Shown here: positions 35,597 through 64,000 of the stretch, piece after piece
Layout of the letters: every line of letters starts with the position of its first letter
How positions within the stretch are numbered: position 1 is the first letter of the stretch
Assembly: GCA_001938485.1 (NCBI GenBank)
Contig: MQRK01255124.1
Location: 1 to 64,000 of the forward strand
From: Girardia tigrina
Lineage: Eukaryota
Direction: 5' to 3'
Length of the DNA: 64,000 bases
Notes under the pieces: generated by a model
Database searches by the model: none
The model's input: only the letters and a program-made list of their open reading frames with translations
What the model was told of the DNA's origin: nothing
Made by a program: the position numbers and the translations under genes

Positions 35597-38269
35597 CAAT
35601 ATTTATATTTATATACATATAAAGGATCTTAAATATTATTATGACATTCTCCTGAATTATTGATAAAATGTTGTTCCCAGACAACAGTGGCGTAGCAACT
35701 GTTATTGGCGCCCGGGTCGGTCCTAAGATTGACCGCCCCCATAACTTTAACCCTAAACCCTAACCCTAACCATAAGCCCTAACTTTAACCCATTATTCGG
35801 AACCCTCAATTAGTGTCTTCGTTAAAAATTAAATAGAGTTATGTTATTGCTGGTCTCAAAATCTTTACTTTAATTTCATATTTTTCTTACGATACTCTTA
35901 TTCTTATACTAAGAATTATCAAGTAACGAAGTCATTTCAAAATTTTCAATTTTATTTACAATTTACAAGCGAAATTCTCATACTTCCATTTTCTACAAAT
36001 TTATTGATAACAGTATCAAAATTCATTTCAGTAGCAAGCTTTCTCTCAATGGAAAGGACTGCCAAGTCTGTAAGCCTTGATTGACTCATTGTAGCTTTAG
36101 TTTTGAAAACTAGCATTCGCAGCTGGTAACGCTAGTAGCCCGGGTAATAAAGATGCCCAGCAAGATCGCAATATTAAGGACGAATTCCCAAGGTTATCTC
36201 TCTGTATGAAGCTCAAAAGTTCTAAAGGGTCTGTTGATTCTGTAGTTTTCTGAAACTCGGACAAAATACTACATTCTTCTTCTTTCGGCTTACAATTCCT
36301 TTTTCTCCACCTCGTCTTCTAATGTTCTAAGCTGGCAATAGTAATTATAATCAAAGAGATTCGATAGTGCAATGAGAGTATATTTGTTTGCATGATCATA
36401 AACTTGTTGAAATGTTGAATATATTTCCTCAATTAACCTATCTACGACAGACAGCATTTCCTGTCTCAACCCAACATCAAATGTCATCGCTACATCGACG
36501 CTCCATGCTTATCCACATTTCAAAGAAGAGCTTCTAAGATTCGACCATTGCAATGCCCACCATCCTTTCTCTATTCTTAAAAATGTAATCTCTCAGTGCT
36601 GAGCTTGACAGAATTTTGATGCAGACCAAGCAATTTTGTTTAAAGACACTTCTTGGCATCATTGATCTCTGGTAGAACATAATTCTAAAGGCTCAGAAGC
36701 GACAGAAACGGAAATGACAGTACTGATGATAGAAGAAAAGAGGCATCTGATCTTGTCGTCACATTCTCTCCTTCTTTGGTGAACTTCACCAGAGCAGTCA
36801 CGACAAGTGATAATTTGTTCAAGAGAATATTTATAGCATTTGATCGAGTGCTCCATCTAGTTTCCACAAGCCGCTTAATATTTAGACCAGTCTCATGACT
36901 CAAAACATCCCAGCGATGCGTATATGCGGAAATGAAAGAGAACAACCGGTCCAATATGCCAAAGCATGTAACAGAGTGAACCACAACAGAAGCTGCATGT
37001 ATGCAAGTCAAATTCTGGGTGTGATTTGAGCATGGCACAAATACAACTTTCATGTTTATTTTGGAGATGTGCTTCTGGACGCCCGATCGATGGGCAGCCA
37101 TAACAGTAGGCCATGGCAATCATCAATCTGAATCTCGTCCTTTTCTAGTTGTCTGAATATCAGTTCACAAATTTCCGTTGCGCTTTTTCACTTTGTCTCG
37201 ATAAAGCGGACAAACGACTCCTCCACTTTCACTTCATTTTCATCCATGTTTACGAAGCTTAAGATCTCGTTGAATTGGTCGTTGTACGATATAGCTGTCT
37301 AAAATTATTCAAAAATACTTGCTCTTCTTGACTTGTGCGATGATTTTCTGTCTCACCTGCTGTGTTAATATGACTAGAAACTCATTTTGAACCTCTAGTA
37401 ACAAATATGAATTGATGATATATTTTCCCAGCTTAATTTTTATCAAATTTTCACGTAGCACAGGGTCATACTTAGCAAACAAATGAACCAATTCCCAATT
37501 TTTTATTCTATTTTCCTGATTTCCGTCGTCGTGAATGTCTTCCCGGTGGCCCCTTAGTCCCAGTAATCTAGCCAGACTTTCTCGCAATTTCTTAGTTTCT
37601 TTCTCAATTAATTCTTCCTCTACTTTTTTTATTGCCTTTCTTTCAGCGAGCCGGATCTCTACCTTTTTCCACTAGAGGCAGCAGCAGTATTGATTTAAAA
37701 TGTTGTATTAGTAATATAAACTTCATCTAAAAAGAATTTGTGCATCTCTGGCAAGAGACAAATCTTCAAGCCCATTGGCAGTTTTCACTAAATTCAGTGT
37801 CATTGTAACATTCTGTTATGGCCAGCATTTCTGATTAGATTTTTCTTCATTTTTTTATATATATAATATTATTTCCATTCCCAAATATCACCCCCAACAA
37901 TAATGCCACCCGGGGCGGACTGCCCCCCGCCCCCCTTCTTGGTTTGTCAACAATGAAATACCACTACTCTGATTGTTTCTTTACTTACTCAGTAATGCAG
38001 CACAGTTGACTTTGGTCAATTTGTTGTGGAGAAAAGGGAGCGATCTTCGGATGCTCTCGAGATGTTCTGAGGACAGTGTCAGGTGGGGAGTTTGACTGGG
38101 GCGGTACATCTGTCAAATGGTAACGCAGGTGTCCCAAGGTGAGCTCAACCAGGACAGAAACCTGGTGTAGACAAAAAGGGGAAAGCTCACTTGATTTTGA
38201 TTTTCAGTACGAATACAGACCGTGAAAGCGCGGTCTATCGATCCTTTTGAGTTTATCTTCAGAGTTTGA

Positions 38270-38302
<33 letters not shown>

Positions 38303-41300
38303 CAGGGATGTCTGTGCGGCCAGTGGGCATACTTCTACGTAGTATCCCTGAGAAACTAGAAGAAGGGTTTGATTCCGTCTCTAGGCTAAAGTGCCCGAAA
38401 GCTAGCCTTTCATTGCGGAAACAGCCGGCAATGTATCGTATTCAGGAATGGGCCAGGCGGAACTAAAGCATGCTCGACCCCAACATTGGGTTAGTGCTTG
38501 TTGAGAACCATCAGAGTCCCAGGCCTCCTATAAAGCCTCAGGCTTAATACTCGACAGGAGTTGAGGTGCACCACAGGGATGGGATACAATGTCGCTCGCC
38601 TCCCCGTGGTGTATCCTGGGAACTAGAAAGAGGGTCTCTCCCCTTTCTAGAAATAGAAGGGGGGGTCTCCTTGATCTTGCTAAATGAGTAGACGGATCGA
38701 TAGTGCCAGCAACTCTGTCTTTCGCTAAGACGCCGCTAACAAAACCCAAAACAGGGGTCTGGAAGGACCCGAAGTCATTAAGCTCCCGAGAGGGGGATCC
38801 CTCGTTAAGGATTCCACTATCAGTGGATTGAAGATTGGAACATGGAATGTTCGAGGATTGACCGACGAGAAGATACTAAACATCTCATGTATCTTTGAGA
38901 AATTAAAACTGGATTTGTGCATACTCACAGAGACGCACTGGCTTGGAAACGACATTACCTCATTCGGGGAATGGAGGATTCATCACAGTGGCAGTACGAG
39001 TGGCACTCGTGAAAGAGGCGTAGCCGTAATGATTCGATCGAGAGATTCCAAAGATGTGGAATTTGAAGCAGTAAGCGAGAGAGTTTTTCTCTGTCATATA
39101 CCCCACAGAAAGATCACATTAGTGGGTGTATACGTTCCAACTGACAGTGGATACTCGAGTGAAGAGAAGGAAGAGTTCTTTATTACACTACAAGAACAAA
39201 TTGAGAAGGCAACGGCTGAAGCAGAGAAGAGACGATTCGAGCTAGTAATTGGAGGTGACTTCAATTGCCGGCTCAGCCGGACGGACGAGAATGAGAAGAC
39301 GGTAGGGTGCTACACTAGTTCAAAGGTTACATCAGAGAATGGAGAACTTCTTATAGATCTCGCAGAGGCGTGCAACTTAAGGATAGAGAACACGTTCTAT
39401 AAACACAAGTTGACGCAAAGAACTAGCTGGACGCACCCTGCCACAAAGCAGAGACTACTATTGGACCTATTTCTGGTGCAGAAAAGCAGATGCAACAGGA
39501 TTAGGAATGTCAAAAGTTATCCTAACTTTGACTGCGGTTCAGATCATGACTTAGTCGTGTTAACAATACTTGTCAATAATAATAAGCAACTCAAATTGAC
39601 AAACGACAGAAGGAAGAAAAGCAAAGGAAAGGTGGACAGATTCTCTCTGCAGAATAACAAAGAGGCTATCAGCGCGGAGATTGGACGGGAATGTCCAAAG
39701 ATCGAGAGCTGGGACGATCTGGAAAAGACGGTCACAAGTACCATGGAGAAGTACCGTAAGAAGAAAGTCCTACTCAATCAAAGGTGGCTACATGAGCACC
39801 TAGAGGAGCTGAAGCCTCTACTGCAGGAGAAATGGAAACGCAGAAGAGAATATATGCAGAATAGGTGTGAAAGAACCTACTCAATATGGAAGGCTGCAAG
39901 ATTAACAACCTTGCGGATTCTCAGAAAATGGAAAAGAGAGAGGATAGAGACTATAGGCCAAGAGATAGAAGGGATTCTTAACAGAGAATGTCTCGGAAAG
40001 ACTTCTGAGCTATACACGGAACTCAGAATCTTGTGTAACAGTCAAACAAAGGAATCCTCTCTCTGTTCAGTGGAGAGTAGTATCAAAGACGAAGTGTTGG
40101 CAGAACACTTTTCACGCCTATTCAAGAAGAATGAAGGAGACTATGTCTTGGAACTGGATCAAAGTCAACAATTGGATATCAACTATTTACCGGACGTGGA
40201 AGAAGTGGGTGCCGCAATAACACAACTCAAAAACGGCACGGCTGCTGGAAACAATGGTATCATTCCAGAGCTATACAAGTGGGGAGGCCACCAGCTAACG
40301 ATCAAGATTATGCAATGTTTCGAGGCCATCTGGGAGGGAAGAGCAGAATTCCCGGAAGCATGGAAAACGGCGAAAGTCGTTATCCTTTACAAAGAGAAAG
40401 GGTCTAAAAAAGACTTGAATAATTACAGAGGAATATTCCTACTTGATGTAGGCGGAAAGATAATGGCTCGAATCATCGCAAACCGACTGATACCACATCT
40501 TGAAAGGATACTGGATGATTGGCAATTCGGCTTCAGGCCGAAAAGAAGTACTGGACAAGCGATAGGTATCATAAAGAAGATACAAGAAGAGGCAAGATAC
40601 CGAAGCAAAAGCGTATATGCAATATTCATCGACCTTGAGAAGGCTTTCGATAGTGTTCCCAGGAAAGTTCTCTGGGACTGCCTTCAAGGAATTGGGGTAC
40701 AAGGACATATGCTGAACGTCATCATGAAATTCCACGAAAACTTCACGGGTAGTATAGGAAAAGAAGTATTCCAGATGGACAAGGGAGTGCGACAAGGTTG
40801 TGTATTAGGACCCCTGCTATTCAACCTTGTCTTCGACTGTGCGATCAAAATATCAGTCAAGGATGGTCTATCAGGTGGAGTACAGGTGATTCACAATGGA
40901 GAAGTACTACTCGTGAATCGATTGGCGTACGCAGATGACTTGTGCCTGCTGGACGAAGATTATGGGAATATTGAGAAAAATATGACATGTCTAAACACTG
41001 CGTTTAAGAAGATGGGGCTCAAAGTAAACATTGGGAAAACGAAGATACTTAACCTCAATGGAGCCAGATATATCACGGCACGAGACGAGCTGAACGCCGG
41101 GATCGAATGGGTGGATGAATTCTGCTACCTGGGCTCCATAATTGAGAGCGGAGGGAGCTCAGGTGTAGATATCAAAAGCAGAATCAAGAAAGGAGTAATC
41201 AAACTAAGAACGATTAGACCAGTGTTGAAGAACAACAAGTTGTCCCTCTGAAACAAGCGCAACATCATCTCCAGCTGTGTATTCCCTGTGGTCTACTACA

Positions 41301-44300
41301 GCTGCGAGAACTGGAGGACAAACGAAGATCATGTCAAGAAGCTAAAAGCATTCCACAACTTGTGCACGCGGCGGACTCTGGGAGTTTCAAAAACTGAACG
41401 AATAAGAATGGATGAATTATCTATTGGGCTGCAAAGTCCGATGGATATTCTAGCACGAAGAAGATTGAATCACAACATCAAAATCGAACTCGGAGATTGC
41501 CCGGAGAACGTCAAACAAGTTTACGAATGTGAACTTATCGGAGGGAAAAAGGTAAGTGGGAGACGCAAACAACATTTGGCTGAATGCCTAAGAGTGGACG
41601 CTAATTGGCTCTTCGGTGACAATTACAGTGTCGGAGAGTTTAAAAGGGATATTCAGCAGGAGAACTTGTCTACAACGGATGCGAAGATGGCGAAAATCTA
41701 CAGAATCAAAAGAATCAACAGAAATGGAGACGAGAAAACACTAAGATTAGTGTTGCCCCGTCTGAAAGAGCACAGCTGCCCGATGGATGCCTGTTACAAG
41801 CAGTATGCAGAGGTGAAGGAGCTAAACAGGCATCTCAGAAGGGATCATGAAGGAGCCGAACCCATCCCGAGGAAACAAAGAGAGAAGAAAGCCCAGCCAC
41901 GACAGAAGAAAGGAATCTACAATTGCCCGCAGTGCCCCAAAGAATACAAAACTGCAGGATTCCTCAAAATCCACATTCAAAAGAATCACAAAGAAGAATC
42001 AGAACAATCCAACGCCCAGCAAGGAGATAATTTGGTCATCGAGAGAGAGGAAGAGCCGACAACAATCCAAACCAACCTTCAATTACCAGACGCAACTGAG
42101 AACACGCCGAGGATTTCTGGGACAGAAGACAACTCTACATATCACCGTGAAGAATCGCCGCACCGACAATACCGATTGCCAGCCAACTATGCAAAAGCAA
42201 AAGGACATTTTCAGTGCCCATTCCGAGGATTTTACGCGTCCACCGTAACCGCCAAAGGTATGTATGGCCATGGCACCAAATTCCATGGCTGGTCTTTAGC
42301 AACTGGAAAACCGATCGTTCGCAGGCAGAAGGACACTGACCCCGTAGGAGGCCTATCGGGGGGCCCTTAAGGACTTTAGTTTGGGTGGACCCTCTAAAGA
42401 GCCTTAGGCTCAATACCATTGAAAGAGATGGGAGGCCCACCACAGGGATCAGGGATCGCTGTGCGGCCAGTTGGCATACTTCTACGTAGTATCCCTGAGA
42501 AACTAGATTTGGTTCGATTCTGTCTCTAGGCTAAAGTGCCCGAAGCTAGCCTTTCATTGCGGAAACAGCCGGCAATGTATCGTATTAGGAATGGGCCAGC
42601 AATCCATTCACTAGGCTACGCTTTTCAATCTGGGTGTGAAGGCAGTGGGGAGTAGTGACCCTGCTGTCGATGGTTGGATTGCATCTTCATGATCTAGGAT
42701 GAATCAATCCCGGTGAAGGGTGTCGTAATGACGTCGTTGCATCTTCGGACTGGCGGAACAAAGGCATGGATCCTAACATTGGGGGAGTGCCCGTTGAAAA
42801 CCATCAGCGTCCCAGGCCTCCTATAAAGCCTCAGGCTTAATACTCGAAAGGAGTTGAGGTGCACCACAGGGATCGGGGATCGACTGTGCGGCCAGATGGG
42901 CTTACTTCTTCGTAGTATCCCCGAGAAACTAGAGTGGGTTCGACTCCTGAATCTAGGCTTAAGTACCCGAAAGACGTATACGTAAGTCGTCTGTAAGATG
43001 ACTTACTTGGCCCGATCGATCGAAGGACACACTAACACTGTGTTGCTCTAATTTAACTCGGTAGTCAGCAAAGGAGTAGAACATTAGTTTCGAGATCCGG
43101 AGCATGACATGTGAGCTTCACTGATATACTCTTCCTGATGAAGTGCAACCTTGAAATGTTTTTTGTTGCACATGATTCGGGTCGTGTTCAGACGGCTAGA
43201 AACGATTTTTTTACACTCTCCTGTGCCAACTGGTTGGGGTTTCTAGTTTGTCAAGGGTATACATTGCACTAGCCAGAAGAAACTAGTACTTGCACGAAGT
43301 GTCCCCGGATAGTGAATTGTTGCATTGTGACAATGGATTGATTTTTTTTCGATCTGTGAAAATCTCGATCAGCCAATGTGAGCATATTGAAATGATTTGT
43401 TTTGCCCGCATTAGCGATTTTTTTTGGTTGAGATCTTTACTGGTCTGATCTATTGAAGCGGTGTGATGGTTCATGAACTAAACTAGGAACGTTATGCGGT
43501 CTGTACCCTCGGATGGTCTGAATTACTCAATGGCAGTAGGTAGTAGCATTTGATATTTATATGGTACTAAATAATTAGTACTAGCTACTACCGGCATTTT
43601 AACTGAGTCACTGTTAAAGAGTAAGGAGGTAAGTTCAAGGTGTCGGTAATCTTATCCTTCCTATTGAAATGTTCTTATTTGGGAGTGGACTGATTGCAAG
43701 CTTTGCAGACCTGGCGTGGAAAGTTGCAGACCTGATCTACTAAATTCGTTAGACCTTGCACAATATCCTGATCAATCACGCTTTTTCTAGATATTGTAAT
43801 CAGTGCCACATAATTGTCACAAAAAAATTAAAAAAAAAGCGGACTTGATAAACAAAAAATAACAAAACATTTCAAATATCATTTATCAAATCACATCTTG
43901 TCGTAACGAATTACATGTCACGTATAATGCATTCAATAACAAAAAACATTTCAAATGAACACAATATACGCGAGTACTCCCCATTTGCCGGTTATTACCA
44001 ACAATTGAGCATAGGCACCCTATATTTTTAAATATTTTTTTAGTGTCGAACTTTTTTTTAATTTAAAACAAAAATTCAATTTTGAAAAATATTTATTTAT
44101 TTTTATTGATTTTTTAATTAAATTTAATGTATTTTTTACTTTTGTAATTGTTAAAAGAATTTTTTTGAAAAAAATGTGACTTTAGTAATTTAAAATAAAT
44201 TTATTAAAATATTTTGATTAAAAATTTGGGCTGGGGTGCTAGGGTGAATGCAGTTGGTTACACAGAGGTGCTACGCACGGTTGTTAAGTAGTTATTTATA

Positions 44301-44579
44301 AGTTGTTATTGTAACGTCATCACTGAGCAATCTGGGGGTCCCGTGAAGCATGGCAAAAATGACTTCGATGACTCTATCCGCGGGCGGTGAGAGAGTTGTT
44401 GGGGACATTACTCGAGTCATAGGGCTTAGCCTGTGGAGTACATTAGTACAAGGGTTGGTCTCAGCACGGAGAATAGTTCCAACTAGTCATTATATATGGC
44501 GCATGGGACAATATTAAAACTCCGGATTCACCACAAGGATAACTGGCTTGTGGCGGCCAGGCGTTCATAGCGACTTGCT

Positions 44580-44622
<43 letters not shown>

Positions 44623-44657
44623 GAATTCACAAAGAGTTGGATTGTTCACCCACCAAT

Positions 44658-44699
<42 letters not shown>

Positions 44700-47600
44700 A
44701 TTTACCGTACTATATAATATACTTTCTACTACTATAATAATATACTTTCACAATTGTACAAAGTGCAATGTATTCATGTTTTAATATAATATAGTGTAAA
44801 GTGAGGCAGAACATACATATGGTATAGCCTAAGCAAAGGGCGAAGCAAGAAAAATATCGAAAATCTGCCTGAACACATGTATAGTAACCCATAGGTAAAT
44901 AGTCGGAATATGATCTTAGATTCTCGAAAAAATCAATAAATAGTGCTTTATTAATATGTTGTGTATAATAGCTGTATAATAGTTGTATAATAGCCTAGGC
45001 ACAGGTCGAAGCAGACGCTTGTGGCCACCAAGCGTTCATAGCGACTTGCTTTTTTGATCCTTCAAGTTCGGCTCTTTCTATCATTGTGAAGTAGAATTCA
45101 CAAAGCGTTGTATTGTTCACCCACCAATAGGGAACGTGAGCTGGGTTTTGACCGTCGTGAGACAGGTTAGTTTTACCATACCATATAAACCGTCATTACA
45201 ATAGTAATTCTGTTAAGTACGAGAGGAACCACAGATTCGGATCACTGGTAAATGTGACCTCAAAAAATGTTGTAACCTCATGCTGTCGCAGACGAGTAAT
45301 TATGTTTGTCGTTGATTACATTCAGATGCGCATCCGTTAGAAATGCAACGTCCTGTTTATCCTGGTTGAACCGTCTTGGCATTGTCTACAAACGATGCCG
45401 ACGTCGGAACAAACAGGATGCCCCTGGATTCACAATAACAATTATGGAACTTTATGGAATTTGTAAGTTCAATTAATTAATTAAAATTTTTAATTAAGGT
45501 TTTTTGTTTTTAGCTTTACTCGAACGGATTTGAAGCAGTGGGACCGGAATCCTGACCCAGCTCATCATCGTGACATGACGGGCTGTGGGCCCCCGCCTAG
45601 ATCAATGTCGATCTGGGTTGATTTTATGTTGTGTAAGCACATATTCTTCTCCAGTGAATGCATCGCTCATGTCTACATGAAATGTGTCGACTGTGAACTT
45701 GTGGCACTGTCGTGTCTGCTTGGTCTAAATTCATGAAAACCATCATTATTATATATGATAAATTAATAATTCTAATAAATTAATAATGAGATGGAAGTGG
45801 AGAAAAGGAAAATTTTAATTATTTTAGATAATGCACCATCCCATCCGAATATCCAACTTTCGGCAATAGAGTTTTTATATTTGCCAAAGAACACAACTTC
45901 CATAACACAGCCATTGGAAATGGATTTGATAAAGGCATTCAAGGATCATTACAAGAATTCTTTTGTTGATTTTTTGGCAACTGAAGAAGATGATTTAAAT
46001 AATGATCCATTTAAAAACATTAATATTAAAAACGCTATTGTTTTTACTTTTATTGCCTGGGAGTTAATATCCAAAGAGTCGATTATTAATTGTTTCAAAA
46101 AGGAATTTTCCAAAAAAGAAGAAACCAACCAAAATTCATATGCTTGAGGAAAATATAGAGGACGTTATTGTTGAGGTTTATGAAAAAAAATTTATCAGAA
46201 CTACTGGAGAAGGAGACCGGAAAAGCTGAAATTTGTGAAAAAGTTCGTTATGATAAACTAAAGCTGGGATGGGAAAAACTTAAAGAATTGGAAAATGTTA
46301 TTGAATATACACCTTTTGATGTTCAAAAAGAATATATCAAGTTTAGAATGCAATTTAATACGCCACTGTCAGATATCTGGGTAGTGGGATGATTGATTAA
46401 TATTCAATATTATTATAATATATATTAAGAACATTAATTGGGTTTTCTTTACATTTATTTATATCACAATTTGAATTATCACTAGAACAATTCTCCGTAA
46501 AACTTGTGTAGCTCGTCATAGTTCTTGATTGATAATCTTTAATAATATTCTTTAACGTCTTATTATTAAAACAAATTTAAGTTACAATTTAATTATTAGA
46601 AAAATAATTTATATTTTAAATTTAAAATAATTTTTATTTATTTTAAGAAATTATTATTAAAATATTATTTATGAAATATTAGTTTAATTTTAAAGTGATT
46701 ATTTAACTTTGAAGAATTGATTAAACAACCCGACGTTTTAAAATATCAATCTTCCATCTGGGTGGGAGAAACACAATCCTAAAACAACATACCAAACAAC
46801 ACACAATAAACACCATTCAAAAATATTCCTCACAATATATATTCAATATTAATTGTTGCTCACAAAATACAGATAATTGTAAGTACATTGTATTTTTAAA
46901 TTTTTTTATAATGTAGCTTTGCTTTTTAGAATCCGCATGAAGTATTCAAAAACTCATCTCCTAAAAGGAAAGAGGCAATGGGTGGAAATGGTGGCAATCC
47001 AAGGAATGCAATTGATACTGTGCTTTCAGATATGAATCTGAGCACCGAAATTCTTCCACACATGCCAAAGAAAAAAAAGAACTTTAACAGAGTAAATTTA
47101 CTAATTAACAGGAACTCCAACATCCAACACAACCACATCCGTGTTTCCAATAACAAAGAAGTATTAAGTATCAATTCATGATTCTGGAGAGGATGATCAA
47201 GACAGAATATTGGCAATAGGCGAGAGAGAATTTCTGGCGGAGCTGGACAAACACTCAATATTTGGGGACGCCATCTTTGACAAAACACTCAATATGCTCT
47301 ATCAGTATGTATTGCATTGATTTCCTTCTTCTGAGAAAAAAATCAAGGGACATATAGAATAATGCTTATTATATTGAAAGACCTTCTTCCAAACTTCTTT
47401 CCTCATAAATTCCTCATTAACTTTGAGAAAGCTCAGGAAGAATTTCCAACAGTTCAAGTGAAAGGATGTGACTTCCACACTTGCCAAAGCTTTGTTAGGA
47501 ATTCTGGATCAGTTGGAATGAAAACTGAGTTTGATTCTGATCATGATGTCAAAGTTAGAATCAAATCAGTAACTGCTGTTACATTTGTTCCACCAAATGA

Positions 47601-53600: not shown

Positions 53601-56390
53601 TAAATAAAATTTCCTTTCCTCTTTCAGCATTCATCCTATTAGAACATGTAGCCATCAACTTATCCTCTTCTATCAACATTTTAATTACTATCAATTTCAA
53701 GAATGATACAAAAGTATTTCTTGAAACAACAGTAAGGTGTGACGTTAGGAATTGTTTTTTATTCATTCGATATTTTTCGCATCGTTGTAGAAAATTGGAA
53801 ATTTCCTGTATTGAAGTTACTAAAGCTGGAATGCCTTAGCAATAGTGGCTCTTTTTTATTTATTCTTTTATCAAAAAATAAACTTGTTACTCAAGCTTTA
53901 TTGGTTCATATCTTAAAAATAAGAAAACAACTGATTTACTGATGAAATATGCGATGAATGACATTTAAAAGCTATATATCAGTTTGCGTATTTATACAAA
54001 TGCATTATACTGCGAGGGAAGATTATAGAACTAAGAACATGTAACATTTCCGAAATAAATCAGCCTTCAAATGGGCAATCAAATATTTTTAACACCTTTT
54101 GGCATTATATAAAGAGAAGAACCTTTAGATTAAGTTTATTTTATCTTTTAAAATTAAATAATTGTCTTATAATATTTTTTCGCAAAGTACCACGGTGAGC
54201 GCCATTGGTTGTTTTCATCTGTCTCAGGGAAATGATTAAACAATAACTTGCCAAATTTCTCAACTCCATAGTCACAGATAATTTGGTAAATTCGTTTCCG
54301 ATATACAACTTTTTTGAAATAAAGATATCATTTTGACGCTGTGAGGGGAATTATAATTAAAACTAATAAACGTTTGTTGCGTAATGTAATGTTGCGTGGA
54401 ATGTTCTATGTGTGATCTCTGTATTGTTATATAATAGGTCACGACCGAAATAATGTATATGATGAAATGAATGAATGTTTTACGCAGTTTGATGACGGCA
54501 TTAATCAATATATATACTGATGATATTTCTTATTGGGGATTCTTTTAGGAAGATCTTATTGTTTTTGAATAGATTATTTATGACAATCTCGAAGTCTTCT
54601 AACAAACGCAGAAATTGATTTTTGGTGAGAGCATCAATCAAGTTGTCTAGGAACACAGGCCACTCGTCATTTGACCACTTTCCAAAAATCTTCTCCAATA
54701 AACAGTGATTAAGTTTACAAAGAATTAACTCTTTAGATTGAATGATAATTTCAGCATCTTTTCCAATGTGAAATTCAATAAACTTTCTAAGATATATACA
54801 ATTCCATTTGTATTTAAGAGTCAATCCAGGGCCGCCGCGTGGGTAAGAGGCGCCTTTGTGCCAGATTATTTTCACACCCTTCCCCGAACTGAACCCCCAA
54901 TGTCAAAAACTATGACTTGTTATGAATTTAATCATTAGAATATTTCCAATGAATACTTTTATTTTATAAAATAATTACAGGTTATATAATACTTTTAATA
55001 TACAGGCATGGGTTATATACATACACTATATAATACTAAATCTAAGCAATCAATAAAATTTGCTTGTCTCAAACATATATTAAGAATTAGATTACTTTAT
55101 AATTATTCATCACTCAAAAATCAAAATACTTTTTACATATTTACTCTCTAATAAATCCATATTTGTCACTTTTTCTTTTTTATCATTTAATTTTTTTTAT
55201 ATTTAATTTTATTTATTTTTATTTAGTGAGGTGGCGCTGAGTGAAAGAGGCACCTGCCGGCGCCTTTTCCACTCGGCGCCCTTGTGCGGTGCACAATATG
55301 AACAATCGTACGCGGCGGCCCTGAGTCAATCAAAATAATCAATCCGTAATATATTTACATCTCATCATTCTTATTAAATAGGCATTCACTCTCCATCGAT
55401 GCGTTGGTTTTATTTTTGAGATTAATCAAAATTTCATTAGAAACTTAACAGTTTTCATTGTCGTCAATTTTCAGAAAATTTAACAATGCAAATTGTGCAT
55501 TCGAAATATTTACAGTTTCTCTTTGTTGCATTTCAAAATTGAGCAAAAATCAAAATTTCATAAAAATGAGGAAATCCACCAAATTCATTATTTTGAACAG
55601 ATTTAATTAAAATTGACGCGATAAACAAATTCAAAATTCACATTTAATATTTATTTTACTTTTACACGATAAAACAAATCTTCATTACGTTTTTTTCCGT
55701 ATAATTTTTCAATATCATTTTTTTACAATTTTCTCGGTTACTCAACTCAGACTAAAGAAGGGGTCAAGATACCATAATTAAAGTGATTCTCGAACAATAC
55801 TCTAATGCTAAATACGCAGGAATATTTATTCGATTTTATAAATAATAATTTTTGTAGCAAAGGTTCATAAATTAGTAATTAAATATGTTTCTGTACTTTT
55901 TTATTATGTTATGTGAATAATCTGGTTAATCTTCTCTTTAGGATTTTTAAAATTCAAAAAAAAACTAAAAATAAGTAATGACTTATTTTACTTGAAACTT
56001 ACCCAACATAAGCATCGCGGTTACAACTACATTTGTCATCAAAGCAAAAACACAAAACGTTATGTGCGTTCTCTTTCCAAATCTTGCTCGTACTACTTGA
56101 AGAAATGTTTTCGCGCCAGGAGCATGAATTTTCAATTGAACGGAAATAATTGAAAATATTATTATTTGAATAGAAGCACCCGCAGCATACCAGAAAGGCC
56201 CACTTAATCCCATCTAGGTTATTTATGTATACATAAATAATTCGACATTTGTTTAAACTAAACAGACTCGCTGACAGACTGTAGAGGACTGAAGTAATGT
56301 AGCCGCCCATGTCCATTGGGACACGAGCATTGTTGATGTGAGACCAACTGATACTTGTCCTCCAGCATTAAAATATATATCAATATTTTC
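13432..56390 (-). CDS. DUR3: Urea-proton symporter DUR3-like (sodium:solute symporter family), 11 recovered exons, first and last exons not located
   Basis: Exons 56268-56390, 56003-56213, 52195-52407, 52030-52152, 35188-35394, 27697-27854, 27518-27648, 27310-27469, 27061-27265, 26840-27017 and 13432-13621 are all GT-AG bounded and phase-consistent (1899 nt, 633 codons). Motifs: [67 protein letters not shown]. Confidence 0.9.
13960..16290. repeat. Diverged ~350-400 bp inverted repeat pair (about 13960-14330 and 15870-16290)
   Basis: Reverse-complement matches, e.g. ttttcaaaacatatt/aaacatatgttttgaaaa, ataattataagggg/ctccttataattatt, gaacggattaa/ttaatccgttt. Confidence 0.65.
17087..23707 (-). 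mobile_element. hAT element with 8-bp TSD carrying nested insertions
   Basis: TIRs cagggatggccaaac / gtttggccaagtctg; TSD atctattg at 17079-17086 and 23708-23715; transposase C-terminus [14 protein letters not shown]...ISIFG...KSKHRS. Confidence 0.85.
19624..23470 (+). mobile_element. Gypsy/Ty3 LTR retrotransposon internal region, decayed
   Basis: Gag knuckle [14 protein letters not shown]; protease ALIDTG; [26 protein letters not shown]; RNase H ELEA...TDS; integrase [11 protein letters not shown]. LTRs not identified. Confidence 0.9.
23897..26430 (-). mobile_element. Full-length decayed hAT (SPIN/Charlie/GTF2IRD2-like)
   Basis: TIRs cagggatgtccaacct / aggttggacatccctg; 8-bp TSD gtctatgt on both sides; [29 protein letters not shown]. 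Confidence 0.93.
26556..26709. repeat. Palindromic MITE-like foldback
   Basis: aaaaataacaatgataaaa...gaactagacaattt...tcgaa mirrored by ttcgataaaataaattgtctagttc...ttatcattgttattttt. Confidence 0.7.
26840..27854 (-). CDS. DUR3: DUR3-like cluster of five exons
   Basis: GLVPP...[22 protein letters not shown]; Cys-rich loop; [20 protein letters not shown]; [14 protein letters not shown]; introns of 48, 48, 44 and 43 nt. Confidence 0.9.
27943..28342. mobile_element. pogo/Tigger-like MITE
   Basis: Ends taccctaatttactg / cagtaaattaggata; internal gcgggttata-type repeats. Confidence 0.55.
28907..29155 (+). repeat. Three ~103-bp tandem units, each starting with a GC hairpin
   Basis: (c)ggcagg-N11-cctgcc(g)gtaactatcaactgatc at about 28907, 29010 and 29113; a partial fourth copy at 29393. 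Confidence 0.8.
30436..31621 (+). mobile_element. Decayed mariner with TIRs and TA flanks
   Basis: ttaggttggaaactatgaaa / tttcatagtttccaacctaa; [29 protein letters not shown]. Confidence 0.92.
32247..33398 (+). mobile_element. Decayed Tc1/mariner of DD37D (maT/mori)-like type
   Basis: [50 protein letters not shown]. Confidence 0.8.
33606..33720 (+). rRNA. 5S rRNA-derived sequence (pseudogene or SINE3 head)
   Basis: Terminal helix gtcaatggc/gccattgac; ccggatctcgttcgatctccgaagtt; gttagtactt; atgggtgaccg; no oligo-T terminator. Confidence 0.85.
33606..33990 (+). mobile_element. Putative 5S-derived SINE (SINE3) with structured body
   Basis: 5S head runs directly into ~250 nt of GC-richer self-complementary sequence. 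The 3' end and TSD are not resolved. Confidence 0.55.
35188..35394 (-). CDS. DUR3: DUR3-like exon
   Basis: [21 protein letters not shown]...[10 protein letters not shown]; AG/GT boundaries. Confidence 0.9.
35685..37935 (-). mobile_element. Decayed hAT (ZMYM/TTF-zinc-finger type), one terminus clipped
   Basis: Terminus cagtggcgtagc; [34 protein letters not shown]; GC-rich subterminal ggggcggactgcccccc at about 37912-37935. Confidence 0.85.
35748..35791 (+). repeat. Degenerate (TAACCC)n telomere-like tract
   Basis: taaccctaaaccctaaccctaaccataagccctaactttaaccc. Confidence 0.75.
37940..38302 (+). rRNA. 28S rRNA pseudogene fragment, 5' side of insertion (domain V)
   Basis: tgaaataccactact; ggtggggagtttgactggggcggtacatctgtcaaa; gaggtgtcagaaaagttaccacagggat. 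Confidence 0.95.
38303..38396 (+). ncRNA. HDV-like ribozyme variant (unit 1)
   Basis: P1 cagggat/atccctg; P2 gggcat/gtgccc; P3 act/agt; L3 tctacgt; P1.1 ct/ag; P4 ctag..ctag; J4/2 gCtaaa. Confidence 0.75.
38303..38571 (+). mobile_element. Non-autonomous ribozyme-headed retroelement, unit 1 (269 bp)
   Basis: Flanked by accacagggat at 38292-38302 and 38570-38580; homologous to unit 3. Confidence 0.85.
38581..38693 (+). ncRNA. Canonical HDV-like self-cleaving ribozyme at LINE 5' end
   Basis: P1 gggatac/gtatcct with G-U first pair; P2 gctc/gagt; P3 gcc/ggt; L3 tccccgt; P1.1 cc/gg; long P4; J4/2 gCtaaat. The predicted cut at 38580/38581 is the element boundary. Confidence 0.9.
38828..42370 (+). 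pseudogene. APE endonuclease-reverse transcriptase polyprotein with one in-frame stop (TGA 41249-41251)
   Basis: [28 protein letters not shown]; [46 protein letters not shown]. ORFs 38828 and 41288 are in one frame, and the relative at about 59790 has Arg (CGG) at the stop position. Confidence 0.93.
42450..42541 (+). ncRNA. HDV-like ribozyme variant (unit 3)
   Basis: Same P1, P3, L3, P1.1 and J4/2 as unit 1; P4 interior differs. Confidence 0.72.
42450..42864 (+). mobile_element. Non-autonomous ribozyme-headed retroelement, unit 3 (415 bp)
   Basis: Flanked by accacagggat at 42439-42449 and 42863-42873; unit 1 plus ~150 nt of internal sequence. Confidence 0.85.
42874..42968 (+). ncRNA. HDV-like ribozyme variant (unit 4)
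   Basis: P1 cggggat/atccccg (compensatory change versus units 1 and 3); L3 tcttcgt; J4/2 gCttaa; P2 partly mismatched. Confidence 0.65.
42874..44531 (+). mobile_element. Ribozyme-headed non-coding element, unit 4 (~1.66 kb, probably with a secondary AT-rich insertion)
   Basis: Starts after accacagggat and ends ...ggattcac before cacaaggat|aactgg; no long ORF. Confidence 0.7.
44530..44711 (+). rRNA. 28S rRNA pseudogene fragment, 3' side of insertion
   Basis: accacaaggataactggcttgtggcggcc...gatccttcgatgtcggctcttcctatc...gagctgggtttagaccgtcgtgagacaggtta. Confidence 0.95.
45017..45255 (+). rRNA. Second 28S fragment (duplicate of the 3' piece, extends through the sarcin-ricin loop)
   Basis: gcttgtggccaccaagcgttcatagcg...; agtacgagaggaacc at about 45216-45230. 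Confidence 0.92.
45791..46390 (+). mobile_element. pogo/Tigger DDE_1 transposase 3' fragment
   Basis: [40 protein letters not shown]...IINCF. Confidence 0.85.
46750..48067 (+). mobile_element. Decayed MULE element
   Basis: LINFEKAQ...[19 protein letters not shown]; terminus acccaattgtctggttacc; ttccatctgggtgggagaaacaca shared with about 14855. Confidence 0.7.
52030..52407 (-). CDS. DUR3: DUR3-like exons 52195-52407 and 52030-52152
   Basis: GGSAVL...[14 protein letters not shown] and [12 protein letters not shown]...[10 protein letters not shown]; 42-nt intron. Confidence 0.9.
52594..53250 (-). mobile_element. Highly decayed mariner
   Basis: TIR ttaggttgatacaaacg; minus strand reads ..VPNE.., [15 protein letters not shown]. 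Confidence 0.65.
53429..53678. mobile_element. MITE with ~35-bp TIRs
   Basis: tgttgatagaagaggataagtagatggctacatgt / acatgtagccatcaacttatcctcttctatcaaca. Confidence 0.75.
54827..55323. mobile_element. hAT-family MITE
   Basis: TIRs cagggccgccgcgt / acgcggcggccctg; 8-bp TSD agtcaatc on both sides. Confidence 0.92.
56003..56390 (-). CDS. DUR3: DUR3-like exons 56268-56390 and 56003-56213
   Basis: [30 protein letters not shown] and [15 protein letters not shown]...APGAKTFLQ; 54-nt intron. Confidence 0.9.
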
Positions 56391-57814
56391 CTATAATCAA
56401 ATTATAAGTTATAAATAAAAAATTAACTTGGATCAATTAAATCATAATTTAATTGACATTAAATTATGATTGTTATTTGTTTTAATTTTATATTCATTTA
56501 TTTACATCTCTTCCTGTAGGGTTACTTCATTACATGATACGTTATCAATTTTTTTCACATAAAACTCTTATATGTAAATATAATATAATATACATATGAA
56601 TACATAATACTAATGAAATTTTTTTTTCGAATAATTGTTTAAAACGATTCATTATCAAAAATCTTATCAATTTAGCCACATACCCAAGTGCCGGAGTTTT
56701 ACTGAGAATTGTCCTAAAGACAATTCAAACTGTGATAAAAATAAACGTCATTTATAAACGTAGGTGACAAGAAATTTTAAGTGGGCAAAGGAGATATTAG
56801 GACTTTTACTGACAAAATCTGCATCCCAAACAGTCACGGAAAGAGTGTTGTCTTTTTTTCCACAAATTTTTGTATCATGCATAAGTAAACAAAACATATT
56901 TATTCATGAAGGAGAAATTTGTACGAGTGATAATTTGTGCTTAAGAAAAGAAGTATTTACCTTTATAATTTTAGTTTGAACATTTTAATATGTTTATTTA
57001 TTTTTAAATGAATTTATTTGTGAATCTAGTATTTATTTGAATAATTATCATTTTTATCTTAAGACAAAATACTTAAACAATATTATGATAGCACTAAAAT
57101 AATACAAAAGTATATAAAAAATTCAAATAATATTTGTGATTCTTTAATAATAAATATAAAGAATTACAACGAAGAAGTACAACCAGTTTTTTCAGGGTTA
57201 CATCTTACATTAAGATTGTCTTATTCCAATTATCTTATTCAATAATCTTACCCATATTCTATAAACCTTGCCTCTTCAGATTTTCATGTTTCTGTGGAAA
57301 TATACAGAAAATTTCTTACAGTTTCTTTGAAAAAAAGTCTACAACCTTTTAAAATGCTCGAGAAAAGTTGTAGAAAATGATGGTGATTGGTATGTATATT
57401 TGAATAAAATTTGTGTTTTTGAATTTTATTTCAAATCAGAAACGAACCTTTTTAATTGTTTAAAAAAATTATTCAACTTGAAACTGAATAAAAATAAGAA
57501 AAGCTAGATGTAGATATATTAATCTCATTTGTTTAAATTCACCAAAACCGGTCATAGTGTTCTTTTCAAATAAAGTTTTATTCGTGTTGCTCTTGTTCTT
57601 TATACTATAAACATTTATTTTAATTTTAATATAGGTGTCTGTACGTTTAGTAAAAATTGTTAACGTTTAAATGTGATCCGTTTAAAGAATTAAACGTTTA
57701 ACCGAAAATTCTAGAGTCGAAATGAGTACTTTAAATTTATGAACAAAAACAATAGCATAGCTTAAGGAAACTTCATCGGCTTTCATTAAATTAGTTTTTT
57801 CTAAAATTAATATA

Positions 57815-59125
57815 CTTAGGCTGTCCCAAAAGTCCTCAGGTGGCCTTTAAAAACACACTAATATTTTACCAAATTTGGACTGAATATTATTCAGACTGTC
57901 ATAAATACTGTGTTAAAATTTCAAAGCATAAAATTAAAAAAAAGTAAAATTTTGTTTTATTAAAGTATTGAAATTTTAAAAGTGCAGCGAATTCAACTCA
58001 AGCGGTTTTTAACAATGGAACCAAAAAAATATTGTCAACGTTTTTTTGTTCTAACTCAAAGTAAAAGAGGATTCTCTGCTTCAGAAATTCTTCAGCAACT
58101 TCAGCAGGCATGGGAAGACGCAAATCACCCAGCACTGAAAACTATTCAACAATGGTTGACTGATTTTAAAAAAGAAAAGCGAACGTCCTTCGACGATTCA
58201 TCAAGAAGTGGCAGGAACAACGCATTAACACTGCAAAGCATATATGCCATGTAATTTCACAGATTGGTGATGAAGCATATTCCAACATAGCGATCGAGGA
58301 TGAGACATGGGTCTTTTTCCAAGATAGAGGAAAGAAAGAAGATTACAAAGTTTGGATTCCTTCTAATGCTGTTCCACCAAAAGTGATAAAGCCATCGCCA
58401 ATGACTGATAAAAAATCTCTTGGTTTCGTAACCTTTAACTGCAACAAACGTTTTAATGTAAAAGCACTGCCATATGGTACCAAGATTGATTCCGAGGCGT
58501 ATGTGAACTTTGTTCATGATACCGGTGAAAAATGGCGGAAACTTAGATCTAACAGCATCATGCTAAAGGAGCTTAAGTGGTGGCATGATAATGCAAGACC
58601 TCATTCTAGCAAAGAAACAACTCTTTTTTATGAAAGAAGAAAAATTGAAATTATCAATCGCCCTATACTCCAGATTTTAATCTGTGTGACAGATTCTTGT
58701 TTTCAAAAATGAAGAAAAGTTTTAAAAATCATGTTTTCAAATCACATGAAGAAATTGAAGAAGCTTGTTAATTCTTTTTTTAATTCTTTATCAACAGAAA
58801 CATTAAAAAATCAACTAGATAAACTTTTAAACTATTTTCAGTTGATTATTGACAACAATGGTGAATTTATGTTATTATGTTAAGTTATGTTGTTGCTTAA
58901 GAAATTTTTAAAATATTTTTTTTAAATAAATTTTTAAATTCGCTGCATCTAATTTTTTTGTTGGTTAATAATATTATTTTTTTGGTAAGTTTCAAATTTT
59001 ATGCTTTGAAATTTTAACACAGTATTTATGATAGTCTGAATAATATTCAGTCCAAATTTGGTTAAATTTGGTAAAATATTAGTGTGTTTTTAAAGGCCAC
59101 CTGAGGACTTTTGGGACAGCCTAAG
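57815..59125 (+). mobile_element. Mariner-like element with ~120-bp TIRs, internally deleted
   Basis: cttaggctgtcccaaaagtcctcaggtggcc... mirrored at about 58995-59125; TA flanks; DETWV, HDNARPH, PYTPDFNLCD. Confidence 0.92.
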
Positions 59126-59525
59126 TACATTTGGTATATAATATGTGTAAATATATATTAATATATAATATATGTTTGGTTTACTCGATACAGACGCTGA
59201 ATGTCAAGCATACAAACAAACTGTTCATGATTTGTGTGTTTTTACTGGGTGTAAGTAATTGAGTTATTACTTTCATCAGTTATTACTGGAGTTAAGGAAC
59301 ACTTTAAAGAAGAAAATACAGAAGAATGCAAACATTAAAATACCATATTTTGAAGGATTAAGAGCTTTTAAGAAGAGTATTTGTAAAATGATAAGTAGTG
59401 CCAAAGTAATCTCTGTCACATCCAAAGTTGAAAGTTTCCTCTAAAAAAAACAGTTTGTGGATTGCAAGCTAATCTGGTATATAAATTTAATTGTCACGGG
59501 TATCGAAATTTGTACGTTGAAGAGT

Positions 59526-60974
59526 TCTACTGAATGACTCATTTGTAGATTTAGGACTTAAGATCAATATAAATAAGACCAAAGTTATGAACCTAAACGG
59601 AGATACCAAAGTTCTCACCACCGGACACCAGCTTGAGACTGGTATTGAGTGGGTATTCAAATTCGTCTATTGGGGTTCCACAATCTCCTCAAATGGTACC
59701 GCTGAAGATGAGATAAGAGAAAGAATTCAAAAGGGTACCAGGAAGATCAGGGACCTCAAACCGGTTTTGAGGAGCTCCAAACTCTCTTTACGGAACAAGA
59801 AGAAGATTGTCAGCTCTTGCATACTTTCCGTAGTATACTACAGTTGTGAGAGTTGGCGAACAGGTAACAAAACAATCAAGAAGCTGGCTGCCTTTCATAA
59901 TTTGTGTACTCGCACAATCATGAAAGTGCAGAAGACTGAGAGGATACAGATGGACACTATCGACATTGGACTCCCGCTCCCCACGAATATCATTGCAAGC
60001 AGAAGACTTGCCTATCACAGCAGGTTGGACACCTCTGATACACCAAATATTATGAGGTGTGTGTGGAGAGCAACAATGCCAATGGGAAAGAAGATCAGTG
60101 GGAGAAAGAATCAAGCTCTCTCCGAATGCCTCAGAGTGGATATACAGTGGCTCTTTGGGGATAGTGCAAAGTATGAAGACTTCATACACCACATTGTCAC
60201 AGAGACCCCACAATAGATAGAAGGCAATACATCAACTTCTTAATAAGAGAAGGGAAGCAGAACAGAACAAGAGCCGATCTACCGAAAGTACTCAATGAGA
60301 GAGATAAACTCCTTCAATGTACGATAGAAGATTGCTTTAAGAAGTTTGCCGAACAAAAGGAGCTAAATAGACATCTCAAGCGGTATCACACGGAATCCAC
60401 AGTAAGCATCCCGCTTCAGCTCCCAGAAGATGAAAAACCGTTTAAATGTACCAAATGCAGCAAAGGTTACAAAACGAAAGGATGGTTCACTAGGCATCTG
60501 CGTAAAGATCATCGAATAGAAGCGAGGGAGAATATCAATGAACATCTGACAGAATAATCAGTGCAATCCAACAGAAGAAGCGACAATCCAGACAGAGACG
60601 AAGAACCCACACTTATCCAAACGACAAATTTTCAGCAACAGTTACCCCGACTATTTCAACGGTGGTGGAGCAAACGACTTATCCCGAAGATACACATTTG
60701 TCTTTTAGGATCGCAGATCCAAATGCGAGGGGAAATTTCAAATGTCCCTTTCGCGGCTGTACCAAGTCCACCAATACAGCCAAAGAGATGCTCAATCATG
60801 GTACCACAATTCATGATTGGTCGTTTGCAACAGGGAAGCCAAAGAAATTTCGGAGACTGAAGCACTCCGTCAACGTAGGAGGTCTATCGAGGGGCAGCTA
60901 GCTCTCTTAAGTTTGGGTGGACCCTCTAAAGAGCCTAGTGGCTCAATACCATTCGAAAGAGATGGGAGGCTCAC
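59526..60974 (+). mobile_element. 5'-truncated relative of the unit-2 LINE
   Basis: LGLKININKTK...VVYYSCESWRT...LSECLRVD, zinc fingers and the same 3'UTR; flanked by acgttgaagagt at 59514-59525 and 60973-60984. Confidence 0.9.
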
Positions 60975-60984
60975 GTTGAAGAGT

Positions 60985-61095
60985 GGAATATAACGCTGCT
61001 CGCCTCCCCGTGGTGTATCCTGGGAACTTGGGAGAGGGGTTCTTTCCTTTCTAGAAATAAATTGGGGAGGTTTTCTTGATCTAGGCTAAATGAGT
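60985..61095 (+). ncRNA. Degenerating HDV-like ribozyme
   Basis: ggaatat...gctcgcctccccgtggtgtatcctggg...gCtaaatgagt; one P1 mismatch. Confidence 0.75.
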
Positions 61096-63500
61096 AAGGT
61101 AGCGGATTAACGGTGCTAGCATCTCTGTCTTTCGCTAGTCCAAAGCTATGAAAACTCAAACTAGGGGTCTGACAGGACCCGAAGTCATTAAGCTCCCGAG
61201 AGGGGAATCCCTTGTTAATGATTCCACTTGCAGTGGACTGAGGATTGGAACATGGCACGTAAGAGACTTAACCGACGAAAAGATACTGAACATGATATGT
61301 ATTTTGACAAACTTAAAGTTGATATGTGCATCCTGACCGAGATGCACAGGATTGAAACGATATTGCCTCCATAGTGGAATGGAGAATCCATCATAGTGGC
61401 AGTACAAGTGGGACACGTGAGAGAGGTGCTGCCCTGATGGTACGATCAGTTGATTCGAAGGGAGTGGAATTTGAAGCTGTCAGCAAAAGACTATTCCTGT
61501 GCCATATACCCAAAAGGTTACAATCATTTGTAGGGGTATATGCACCAACGTACAGTGGATATTCAAGTGAGCAGAAAGAGGAGTTCTTCGTATCGTTACA
61601 AGAAAAAGTGGAGAAGGTGACTGTTGAAGCTGAGCGCAGAAAATACGAATTGGAGGCGACTTCAACTGCAGACTTAATCGGACGGAAGAGACCAGAGGAA
61701 GTATCCGGGTGGTACACTAGTTCATCAGCAAGATCATAGAATGGTGATCATGTTATTGATCTCACAGAGGAATGTAATTTGCAAGTAGAGAACACCTTCT
61801 ACAGGCATAAACTAGCGCAGAGAACTAGTTGGACACACGCAGTAACGAAGCAGCGCTTATTACTGGACCTGTTTTTAACACAAAAGAGCCGCTGCAGCAG
61901 GATATTAAATGTCAAGAGTTATCCAAATTTTGACTGTGGATCGGATCACGACTTAGTCTTATTAACCTTCTGAGTTAAAAATGATGGCAAGAAAAGCCTC
62001 AAGCTTGCTAATGATCGAAGAAAGAAGTGCAAAGGAAAGTTTGACAGATTCTCTTTGATGAACAACAAAGACACAATCAGTAGAAACATTGGACAGGTTT
62101 GTCCGAATGTTGAGAGTTGGGACGAATTAGAAAGAGTAGTTGTTTTTACAGCTAGCAAATACCGAAAGAAGAAAATCCCGCTTAATCAAGCTGGATTCAC
62201 AACCACCTAGATGAACTAAAGACGTTGTTACAGGAGAAATGGAAACGAAGGAAGGAGTTCATCCAGAATAGATGCGAACAAACGTATGCCAAATGGAAAG
62301 CTGCGCGACTGAATACATTATAGCAGCTGAGAAGATGGACGAGAGAAAGGATATAGATCATCGGACCTGAGATTGAAGGCGTGCTGAACAGAGAGGGCAT
62401 AGGGAAAACCTCTGAACTATATACGGAACTCAGAGCCCTATGCAATAGCGAAACAAAAGAATCAATCCTCTACACAGTACAGAGTAGTTTGGCAGACGAA
62501 GTGTTAGCAGAGCACTTCTCGAATCTATTCAGGAAGAGTGAAAGAGACTATGTCGTGATTGCAGATCAGAGACATATCTTGAATATTGACAACTTACCGG
62601 ATGTGGAAGAAGTGGGTTCCACAATAAATCAACTCAAGAACGGTACAACTGCTAAGAACAATGGTATCATCCCAGAGTTATACAAGTGGGCGGTCAACAG
62701 TTAACTCTCAAGATCCAGCAATTTTTTTAACTAATTCGGGAGGGAAGAGCAGACTTCCCGGAGGCATGGAAAACAGCGAAATTTGTAATCCTATATAAAG
62801 GGAAAGGTTCAAAGAAGGATTTGAACAATTACAGAGGAATCTTTCTACTCGATGTAGAAAGTAAGATAATGATGCGAATCATTGCAAACAGATTAATGCA
62901 ACACCTTGAGAGAATATTGGATGACTGGCAATTTTGGTTCAGGCCCAAAAGAAGAACAGCACATGCGATTGGCATCATTAGAAAGGTGCAAGACCAGGCC
63001 AGATACCTCAATATCAACGTGTGTACAATATTTATCGACATTGAAAAGCTATTCGCCAGGAATTGGAGTACAGGGTCGCATATTAAGCATGATAATGGAT
63101 TTTCATGAAGGATTTACAGGAAGTGTTGGTAAGAGCATTTTCACAATGGAGAAAGAAGTCCGACAAGGTTGCGTACTCGGTCCCCTACTATTCAACCTAG
63201 TATTCGACTGCGCAATCAAAACTGCCATCCAAGAAGGACTAAGTGGAGACGTGAAGGTCAAATGGGAAGACGGAGAAATACTAACTGTAAACAGGCTGGC
63301 ATATGCTGACGAACTATGTTTACTGGACGAGGATTACGAAAACATAGAGAAAAACCTAACGTACCTAAATACTGTGTTTCTTAGAATGGGGTTGAAGATC
63401 AACAGTGGGAAGACGAAGATCCTTAATCTCAATGGGGCCAGATATGTAACGTCGGAAACAAACTGAGTACCGGTGTAGAATGAGTGGAGGAGTTTAGTAA
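60985..63500 (+). mobile_element. Decayed 5'-complete copy of the same LINE family, 3' part missing
   Basis: Ribozyme, APE (GTWHVR, GSDHDLV) and RT ([25 protein letters not shown]) with many frameshifts. Confidence 0.92.
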
Positions 63501-64000
63501 TTCAACATACCTCTAAAAATATATAATTATTTTTATAAAATCTGTGTATTACTGTATTGGGTAAACTACCATGTCGATTTATGTGAGCTTAAATGGTGAA
63601 TGACTCACGTAGCGTTTAGAAGTGATGAATTATCTACCGTCCTGTCGAAAATCTACCGACAAGTATGTCTTGAGAAAATTATAGTGGTGTTAGAAATTAA
63701 TCAATTTAATCAATTAAATAAAGTCGATATATTTTAAAAGAGAAATAATCAGTAAAAGTTTTTAAAATTAGAATTTAAAAATAAATAATAAACGAAATAA
63801 AATTTATAATGTAAATTTATAATAAAAAGCTACTGCAAAATTATTTTTAAAGAAATTAAATTAGGTTAAATAGTTTTACAAAAAATAATTGGAAAGAAAT
63901 TTGAATTTGTATAAATTGAATAAATTTTATAAATAAATTTATGTAATAAAAAGTTTCATTAAATAAAATTTTCAAAAAAATGTTATAGAATATAATAAAT

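Follow-up and report, generated by a model that had tools for sequence, protein, structure and literature searches.

The stacking of retrotransposons is a known process, which has been documented for R1, including its insertions outside the 28S gene, for ingi/RIME and for jockey. Tandems of R1 arise when a new copy inserts into the target duplication that lies 5′ of a resident copy (Stage and Eickbush 2009, PMC2718515). Insertions of R1 at places other than the 28S gene show 4–9 bp of likeness to the target and carry duplications of 3–14 bp (PMC2718515). The ingi/RIME, L1Tc/NARTc and TSIDER1 elements of trypanosomes are characterized by 12-bp duplications, by upstream motifs and by tandems of long and short elements that are parted only by the duplication (PMC3820030, PMC5814959). 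In Drosophila double insertion is described as general, and dimers favour better-than-average sites (McGurk and Barbash, 10.1101/158386). For RTE elements, binding upstream of the nick and priming through short overlaps at the 3′ end have been proposed (PMC6007223), and RTE-1 is listed as inserting at random in a 2026 review (PMC13708176). According to a 2015 paper, most target-specific APE elements belong to the R1 and Tx1 clades (PMC4640811). RT1/RT2 of Anopheles and R5 of planarians also insert into the 28S gene, though not where R1 and R2 do; the RT elements possess two ORFs, and R5 carries a restriction-like endonuclease. RT1/RT2, which belong to the R1 clade, may use a 28S site near or identical to the site of the family analysed here.

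The present analysis covers a 64-kb stretch of DNA (the window), in which one family of elements forms two stacks, the first in a 28S fragment and the second elsewhere (Table 1). R1 of Drosophila differs from the window element in having two ORFs, whereas the latter has a single ORF, three C-terminal fingers and another 28S site. R1 is similar to it in being an APE-type, 28S-targeting element with tandems parted by the target duplication (PMC2718515). The ingi clade shares with the family the single ORF, the HDV-like ribozyme at the 5′ end, the 12-bp duplication (in the window 12 bp at the second site and 11 bp in the 28S fragment) and the tandems of long and short elements. The target motif of ingi lies upstream of the insertion point; in the window an upstream likeness of 8 of 15 bases was noticed post hoc and between two sites only. 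In contrast to the ingi clade, the window element lives in an animal host, targets the 28S gene, has RT motifs that look RTE-like, and did not yield an RNase H. The dimers of jockey and of the P element are likewise head-to-tail, with a duplication at the junction and differing 5′ truncations (10.1101/158386), whereas here two diverged lineages meet at one site, in a family that targets the 28S gene as well. Common to the RTE clade and the window family are the single APE-RT ORF, a 3′ target overlap of 1–2 bases and, as putative features in the latter, an HDV-like ribozyme cutting at the 5′ junction and recognition upstream of the nick (PMC6007223, PMC3774820); the window family differs in its three C-terminal fingers, its rDNA target and the absence of a microsatellite tail. 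The family thus works in an R1- and ingi-like manner, yet its single ORF sets it apart from the former and the RNase H not found sets it apart from the latter.

The newer part of these observations is the RTE-like, 28S-targeting three-finger family itself. It is notable as an APE element of compact build, with one ORF, three fingers at the C-terminus, a putative self-cleaving 5′ end and short partners, which has used one 28S site four times. Neither an RTE-like 28S element nor the 11-bp site is described in the literature searched; Repbase, subscription papers and supplements may hold such a description. The available text of PMC5035012, of a Dugesia genome preprint and of PMC1919474 contains nothing on the family. 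Judged from one 28S locus and from literature outside Repbase, the chances are about even that the family represents a lineage specific to rDNA that stands outside the R1 and Tx1 clades and has not been described. If so, target specificity would have originated independently once more among APE elements, and the family would be a candidate RNA-only tool for insertion into rDNA.

The element family and its stack in the 28S fragment

The near-intact full-length element of the first stack is 93% identical to the intact relative P0002. It contains one ORF, which starts at position 38729 behind a short 5′ UTR, and does not show a layout of two ORFs with a gag-like ORF1. The ORF encodes an N-terminal APE domain, an RT domain and C-terminal C2H2 fingers. 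Zinc fingers are all that the C-terminus holds, with no restriction-like endonuclease of the R2/R5 kind. An RNase H family downstream of the RT was not found in a Pfam scan of both ORF parts of this copy, and a microsatellite-like repeat tail is absent from the five 3′ ends compared.

Public protein sets contain intact relatives of 1145–1242 residues, most of them from contigs of ~4 kb. In an RT tree of 64 rows, which is midpoint-rooted, the family falls into a clade of 22 rows with a support of 100/99. Most members of this clade bear two or three finger motifs, and its neighbours are mostly unnamed APE-RT proteins, many of them with PF20049. No relatives were found in the viral collection. 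Among the 80 loci listed in a metagenome scan, the only near relatives are L001 and L002 (34–35% identity), in which neither a target duplication nor a matching ribozyme was found; none of the 20 metagenome loci scanned with Rfam gave a match at the gathering score. In L001, a 35% relative, the 3′ region (4660–4745) resembles the 3′ stem-loop of the family and is followed by CTC/AC, as at the junctions of the window. By Rfam, rDNA is not the target of L001; no duplication was found there.

The first stack consists of four elements, two short, one long and one non-coding of 1.65 kb, which are parted by five copies of an 11-bp sequence. This sequence is single-copy in the intact 28S of 41 eukaryotic loci. 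Of 15 long loci, 8 yielded the R2 motif, and in these the 11-bp sequence lies 438–734 nt downstream of it. The R1 offset is ~74 nt. Profiles of the 5′ and 3′ ends revealed no solo copies in the window, and all six copies belong to the two stacks. A short inverted repeat, AGTT...AACT (38288–38306, 44541–44544), borders the 11-bp duplication at the intact 28S site, and with it both nicks would fall at T/AAC on opposite strands; the second site retains only T/A at the first nick. The right 28S flank is present twice, at 44546–44717 and 45017–45188, with 92% identity. The 28S piece, a 5S copy (33606–33720) and a 5.8S copy (3970–4111, minus strand) are orphans outside any rDNA unit.

Table 1. Features of the two stacks (positions in the window)
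Feature	Position	Strand	Description
28S rRNA fragment (orphan), flanking the first stack on the left	38092..38291	+	
First of five 11-bp duplications of 28S sequence	38292..38302	+	others at 38570, 42439, 42863 and 44530 (the last with one change)
Short non-autonomous copy	38303..38569	+	HDV-like 5′ end, family 3′ end
Near-intact full-length element	38581..42438	+	single ORF (APE, RT, three zinc fingers), one internal stop
Second short non-autonomous copy	42450..42862	+	
Fourth element of the stack, non-coding (1.65 kb)	42874..44529	+	5′ end ribozyme-like and akin to the short copies, 3′ end diverged
Continuation of the 28S fragment behind the stack	44541..44717	+	partly duplicated at 45017–45188
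Host flank upstream of the second site	59499..59513	+	8/15 bases match the 28S target in register (weak, post hoc)
Left 12-bp target-site duplication	59514..59525	+	
Copy A, 5′-truncated non-LTR retrotransposon	59526..60972	+	RT end, post-RT region, three zinc fingers, 3′ UTR
Right 12-bp duplication, A/B junction	60973..60984	+	
Copy B, 5′-complete, 3′-broken element	60985..63494	+	APE and most of the RT
HDV-like ribozyme fold (predicted), 5′ end of B	60985..61096	+	P1 from the first base after the duplication, one mismatch

The 5′ ends of the elements were searched for HDV-like ribozymes. A strict fold descriptor, which was tuned on these same elements, detected five cores in 128 kb (both strands), all of them at element 5′ ends; a looser descriptor gave 32 matches in the window, and only the stricter one is specific. 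In all five 5′-complete copies a P1 stem is possible from the base that directly follows the duplication. The putative fold at the 5′ end of B is assigned by descriptor only, and no Rfam ribozyme family was found there. In the short copies the P1 strand repeats, or pairs with, the final 7 bases of the duplicated 28S sequence (38296–38309, 42443–42456), and the fourth element (42867–42880) shows a compensatory change at the P1 pair. B carries no 28S remnant. Because the P1 of the short copies uses the end of the 28S duplication, this arrangement suggests that 28S is the evolved target of the family. The ribozymes of R2 likewise use 28S sequence (PMC3774820).

Structure and surroundings of the second site

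The original prediction, made from the sequence alone, stated that one 12-bp sequence precedes a 5′-truncated copy and follows its 3′ end, and that a 5′-complete copy of a different subfamily starts directly behind it. Both statements are correct. Two exact occurrences of the 12-mer ACGTTGAAGAGT, at 59514 and 60973, are all that the 64-kb window holds, and an 11/12 match to it is found nowhere in the window. The two occurrences form an identical duplication (12/12) on both sides of A. The frameshift-aware alignment of A to its nearest intact relative P0143 begins at 59527, one base past the left 12-mer. The 3′ end of A is in register with that of the full-length copy of the first stack and lies directly before the right 12-mer. 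The chance of the 12-mer falling at both boundaries of A is ~4e-6, allowing for 60 candidate positions, and its chance recurrence was rejected. [quoted passage not shown] Copy A is flanked by a target-site duplication on both sides, and B adjoins the right copy of it.

A is 62% identical to the intact P0143 and B is 74% identical to the intact P0003. The nearest lineage of A is P0008/P0143, and that of B is P0002/P0003. Compared with the LINE of the first stack, A shows 50% amino-acid identity over 225 residues and B shows 67–76%. The two copies represent two lineages, ~50% identical in amino acids, of one single-ORF family. A reading of A and B as one permuted element was rejected: they overlap by ~45 codons, and their sequences differ there.

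The pair had also been predicted to re-use its own 12-bp duplication. A is shown to be flanked on both sides. For B the re-use is not confirmed: B ends at 63494, inside the RT domain, and is followed by no third 12-mer in the window (best 9/12); B may have made or reused the same duplication. The final 500 bases of the window have a GC content of 20% and contain no element sequence. The segment 63495–64000, after the abrupt stop of B, is very AT-rich and has no self-match in the window; it would represent either a deletion or an insertion running past the window end.

The upstream flank does not look like rRNA, as had been predicted. No credible RNA was found in Rfam for 58500–64000 or for the flank alone (one snoRNA match each, E 4.5 and 6.5), and blastn of the flank against the 41 rDNA loci gave a best E of 0.35. 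In these loci (110,619 bases, a set outside which the host's own complete rDNA lies) the 12-mer is absent, with a best match of 10/12. The flank of the second site is apparently not rDNA, and its likeness to the 28S target is weak. In register, the host flank matches the upstream part of the 28S target at 8 of 15 bases, a score equalled by 2.5% of the window positions and by 1.9% of the AC positions; this post hoc comparison of two sites only corresponds to a p of about 0.02–0.03. A shift of 2 bases scores equally well (9/18), and near the nick the likeness vanishes (4/12 at −6..+6). Both duplications begin with AC, as had been noted; they share only 4 of 11 bases and differ in length (12 versus 11 bp).

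An AC-anchored context, which had been offered as one explanation, fits these data if it is partly degenerate. Stacking has occurred at a site that is not rDNA, and the prediction that it does not require intact 28S sequence is thereby upheld. The off-target stack shows which bases are tolerated by the enzyme. Contrary to what had been supposed, the second site does not compete with strict 28S specificity, because the 28S-specific R1 also makes tandems and non-28S insertions (PMC2718515).

Succession of insertions at the second site

The relative age of the two copies was assessed from their decay. In A, the 451 codons aligned hold 3 frameshifts and no stop (3 lesions over 1369 bp); in B, the 718–735 codons aligned hold 7–8 frameshifts and 6 stops (13–14 lesions over 2172–2228 bp). 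The number of lesions per base is 2.7–2.9 times higher in B, with binomial p values of 0.08 and 0.06, and of 0.053 for the stops alone. Invariant columns are changed at 3/40 positions in A and at 16/98 in B, and broader conserved columns at 15/152 and 28/196, respectively (p 0.14), despite the weaker constraint on the region covered by A (outgroup differences 42% versus 26%). None of these tests is significant alone, they are not independent, and A and B span different protein regions, but all of them point the same way, and B is probably the older copy. Since B is more decayed, A is likely to have been inserted later, into the duplication at the 5′ side of B. A younger duplication would also agree with the identity that the two 12-mers have kept.

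We propose that the second site was formed by a sequential double insertion of the R1/ingi type, in which both insertions were guided by the host site; the probability of this reading is estimated at about 0.6. Two separate events of target-primed reverse transcription would have taken place at the same site. In the first event, the HDV-like ribozyme would have cut the RNA of B at the 5′ end of that RNA, which would then have been inserted off-target in host DNA. With the 28S target of the family the site would have had in common the AC where the first nick falls and, perhaps, a few of the bases upstream, and a 12-bp duplication would have resulted. The upstream flank and the left duplication would have been left intact, so that the site would have remained a target. 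In the second event, the RNA of the other lineage, A, would have been primed at the same first nick, possibly aided by pairing of the AC with its 3′ end, copied incompletely and joined 12 bp away at the first base of B. B would later have lost, or been parted from, its 3′ part and the 3′ duplication presumed to have followed it. The stack in the 28S fragment shows the same architecture. Against sequential double insertion stand the 3′ duplication of B, which is not visible in the window, the age tests, the post hoc nature of the upstream likeness, the differences between the two duplications and the stacking of all six window copies, which is above the prediction for a weakly degenerate target, although only one locus is non-rDNA. 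The main point that it does not account for is the presence of ~50%-identical lineages at the same base of a weakly target-like site.

A rival reading is self-targeting, in which the protein, for example through its zinc fingers, would read an end of a resident element (the conserved 5′ end, 12 bp away from the nick, would be one candidate) and re-cut whatever host sequence is found there. The stacking of six out of six copies, the meeting of the two lineages at one base with little 28S likeness and the resemblance of the three C-terminal fingers to DNA-binding C2H2 proteins would all fit such a mechanism. However, the 3′ ends of the elements are unlike the target and match its upstream part at 2–5 of 15 bases in register, against 8/15 for the host flank. 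Moreover, the 5′ ends of the long and the short elements differ, yet all of them stack, published stacking is explained without recognition of the element, and the case concerns a single non-rDNA locus. The decay suggests entry on the 5′ side (p 0.06–0.14), where the upstream DNA and the first nick are host sequence untouched by B and recognition of an element end would not be needed. Self-targeting of a resident element end, which the original prediction had put forward, finds no support in these comparisons and is considered unlikely. Equally doubtful is the wider proposition that an RTE-like lineage with a 28S specificity independent of R1/Tx1 also reads its own resident 5′ end, perhaps via the three fingers. 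If this were true, an off-target copy would seed a new safe-harbour stack, reused even by distant sister lineages.

It is also improbable, to a similar degree, that the 12-mer is part of a second conserved multicopy target in the distal 28S, in another RNA gene or in a repeat; such a target may be the real one of the A lineage. When 127,968 window positions are scored against the profile of a motif conserved close to the 3′ end of 28S, the 17 bases that end with the 12-mer take rank 7; intact relatives of the A lineage exist on ~4-kb contigs, and non-28S insertions of R1 often lie within repeats (PMC2718515). But the motif was chosen because it resembles the site, and the likeness does not extend upstream. 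With 150 composition-matched pieces of the window searched over 15 loci, the p value becomes 0.27–0.75, and the distal motif as a second target was rejected as non-significant once the search of the whole rDNA had been corrected for. The best match of 10/12 in the 41 eukaryotic loci, outside which the host's own 28S region lies, and the flank without a credible RNA in Rfam also argue against it.

Two further alternatives to the sequential double insertion are less probable still. In a single coupled event, the reverse transcriptase would have copied B, jumped to the 12-nt target overhang and re-primed on an RNA of the A lineage before ligation; exact reuse of both nick positions would then need no independent second insertion, but the two copies would be equal in age, yet B looks more decayed, and RNAs of two lineages would be required at one site and at one time. 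The reverse order, with A inserted first and B later entering the 3′ duplication of A, to which this duplication and the host sequence downstream would have guided it, would give an identical architecture and is favoured by the weakness of the age tests and by the duplication being shown on both sides for A only, but it is very improbable in view of the higher number of lesions per base in B, of the formation of R1 tandems in the 5′ duplication and of a first nick that would abut element sequence unlike the target.

Minor features of the window

A DNA transposon with 127-bp inverted ends (91%) is located at 57809–59131, ~380 bp upstream of the second site. It contains a decayed transposase-like frame without a Pfam match, which is mariner-like by a motif. 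An intronless EF-1alpha gene with one N is located at 1231–2673; its protein is 94% identical to that of the triclad Humbertium and 81% identical to that of Schmidtea, which makes a triclad flatworm the probable host. A decayed, GC-rich remnant of an LTR retrotransposon with an integrase match extends over 19550–23450 and is interrupted by AT-rich sequence near 20900–21100. A fragment of a mariner-type transposase and several inverted-repeat or palindromic MITE-like elements are found at 7809–8315, 13946–16292, 17333–18435, 26436–26811, 51090–51627 and 53428–53679.
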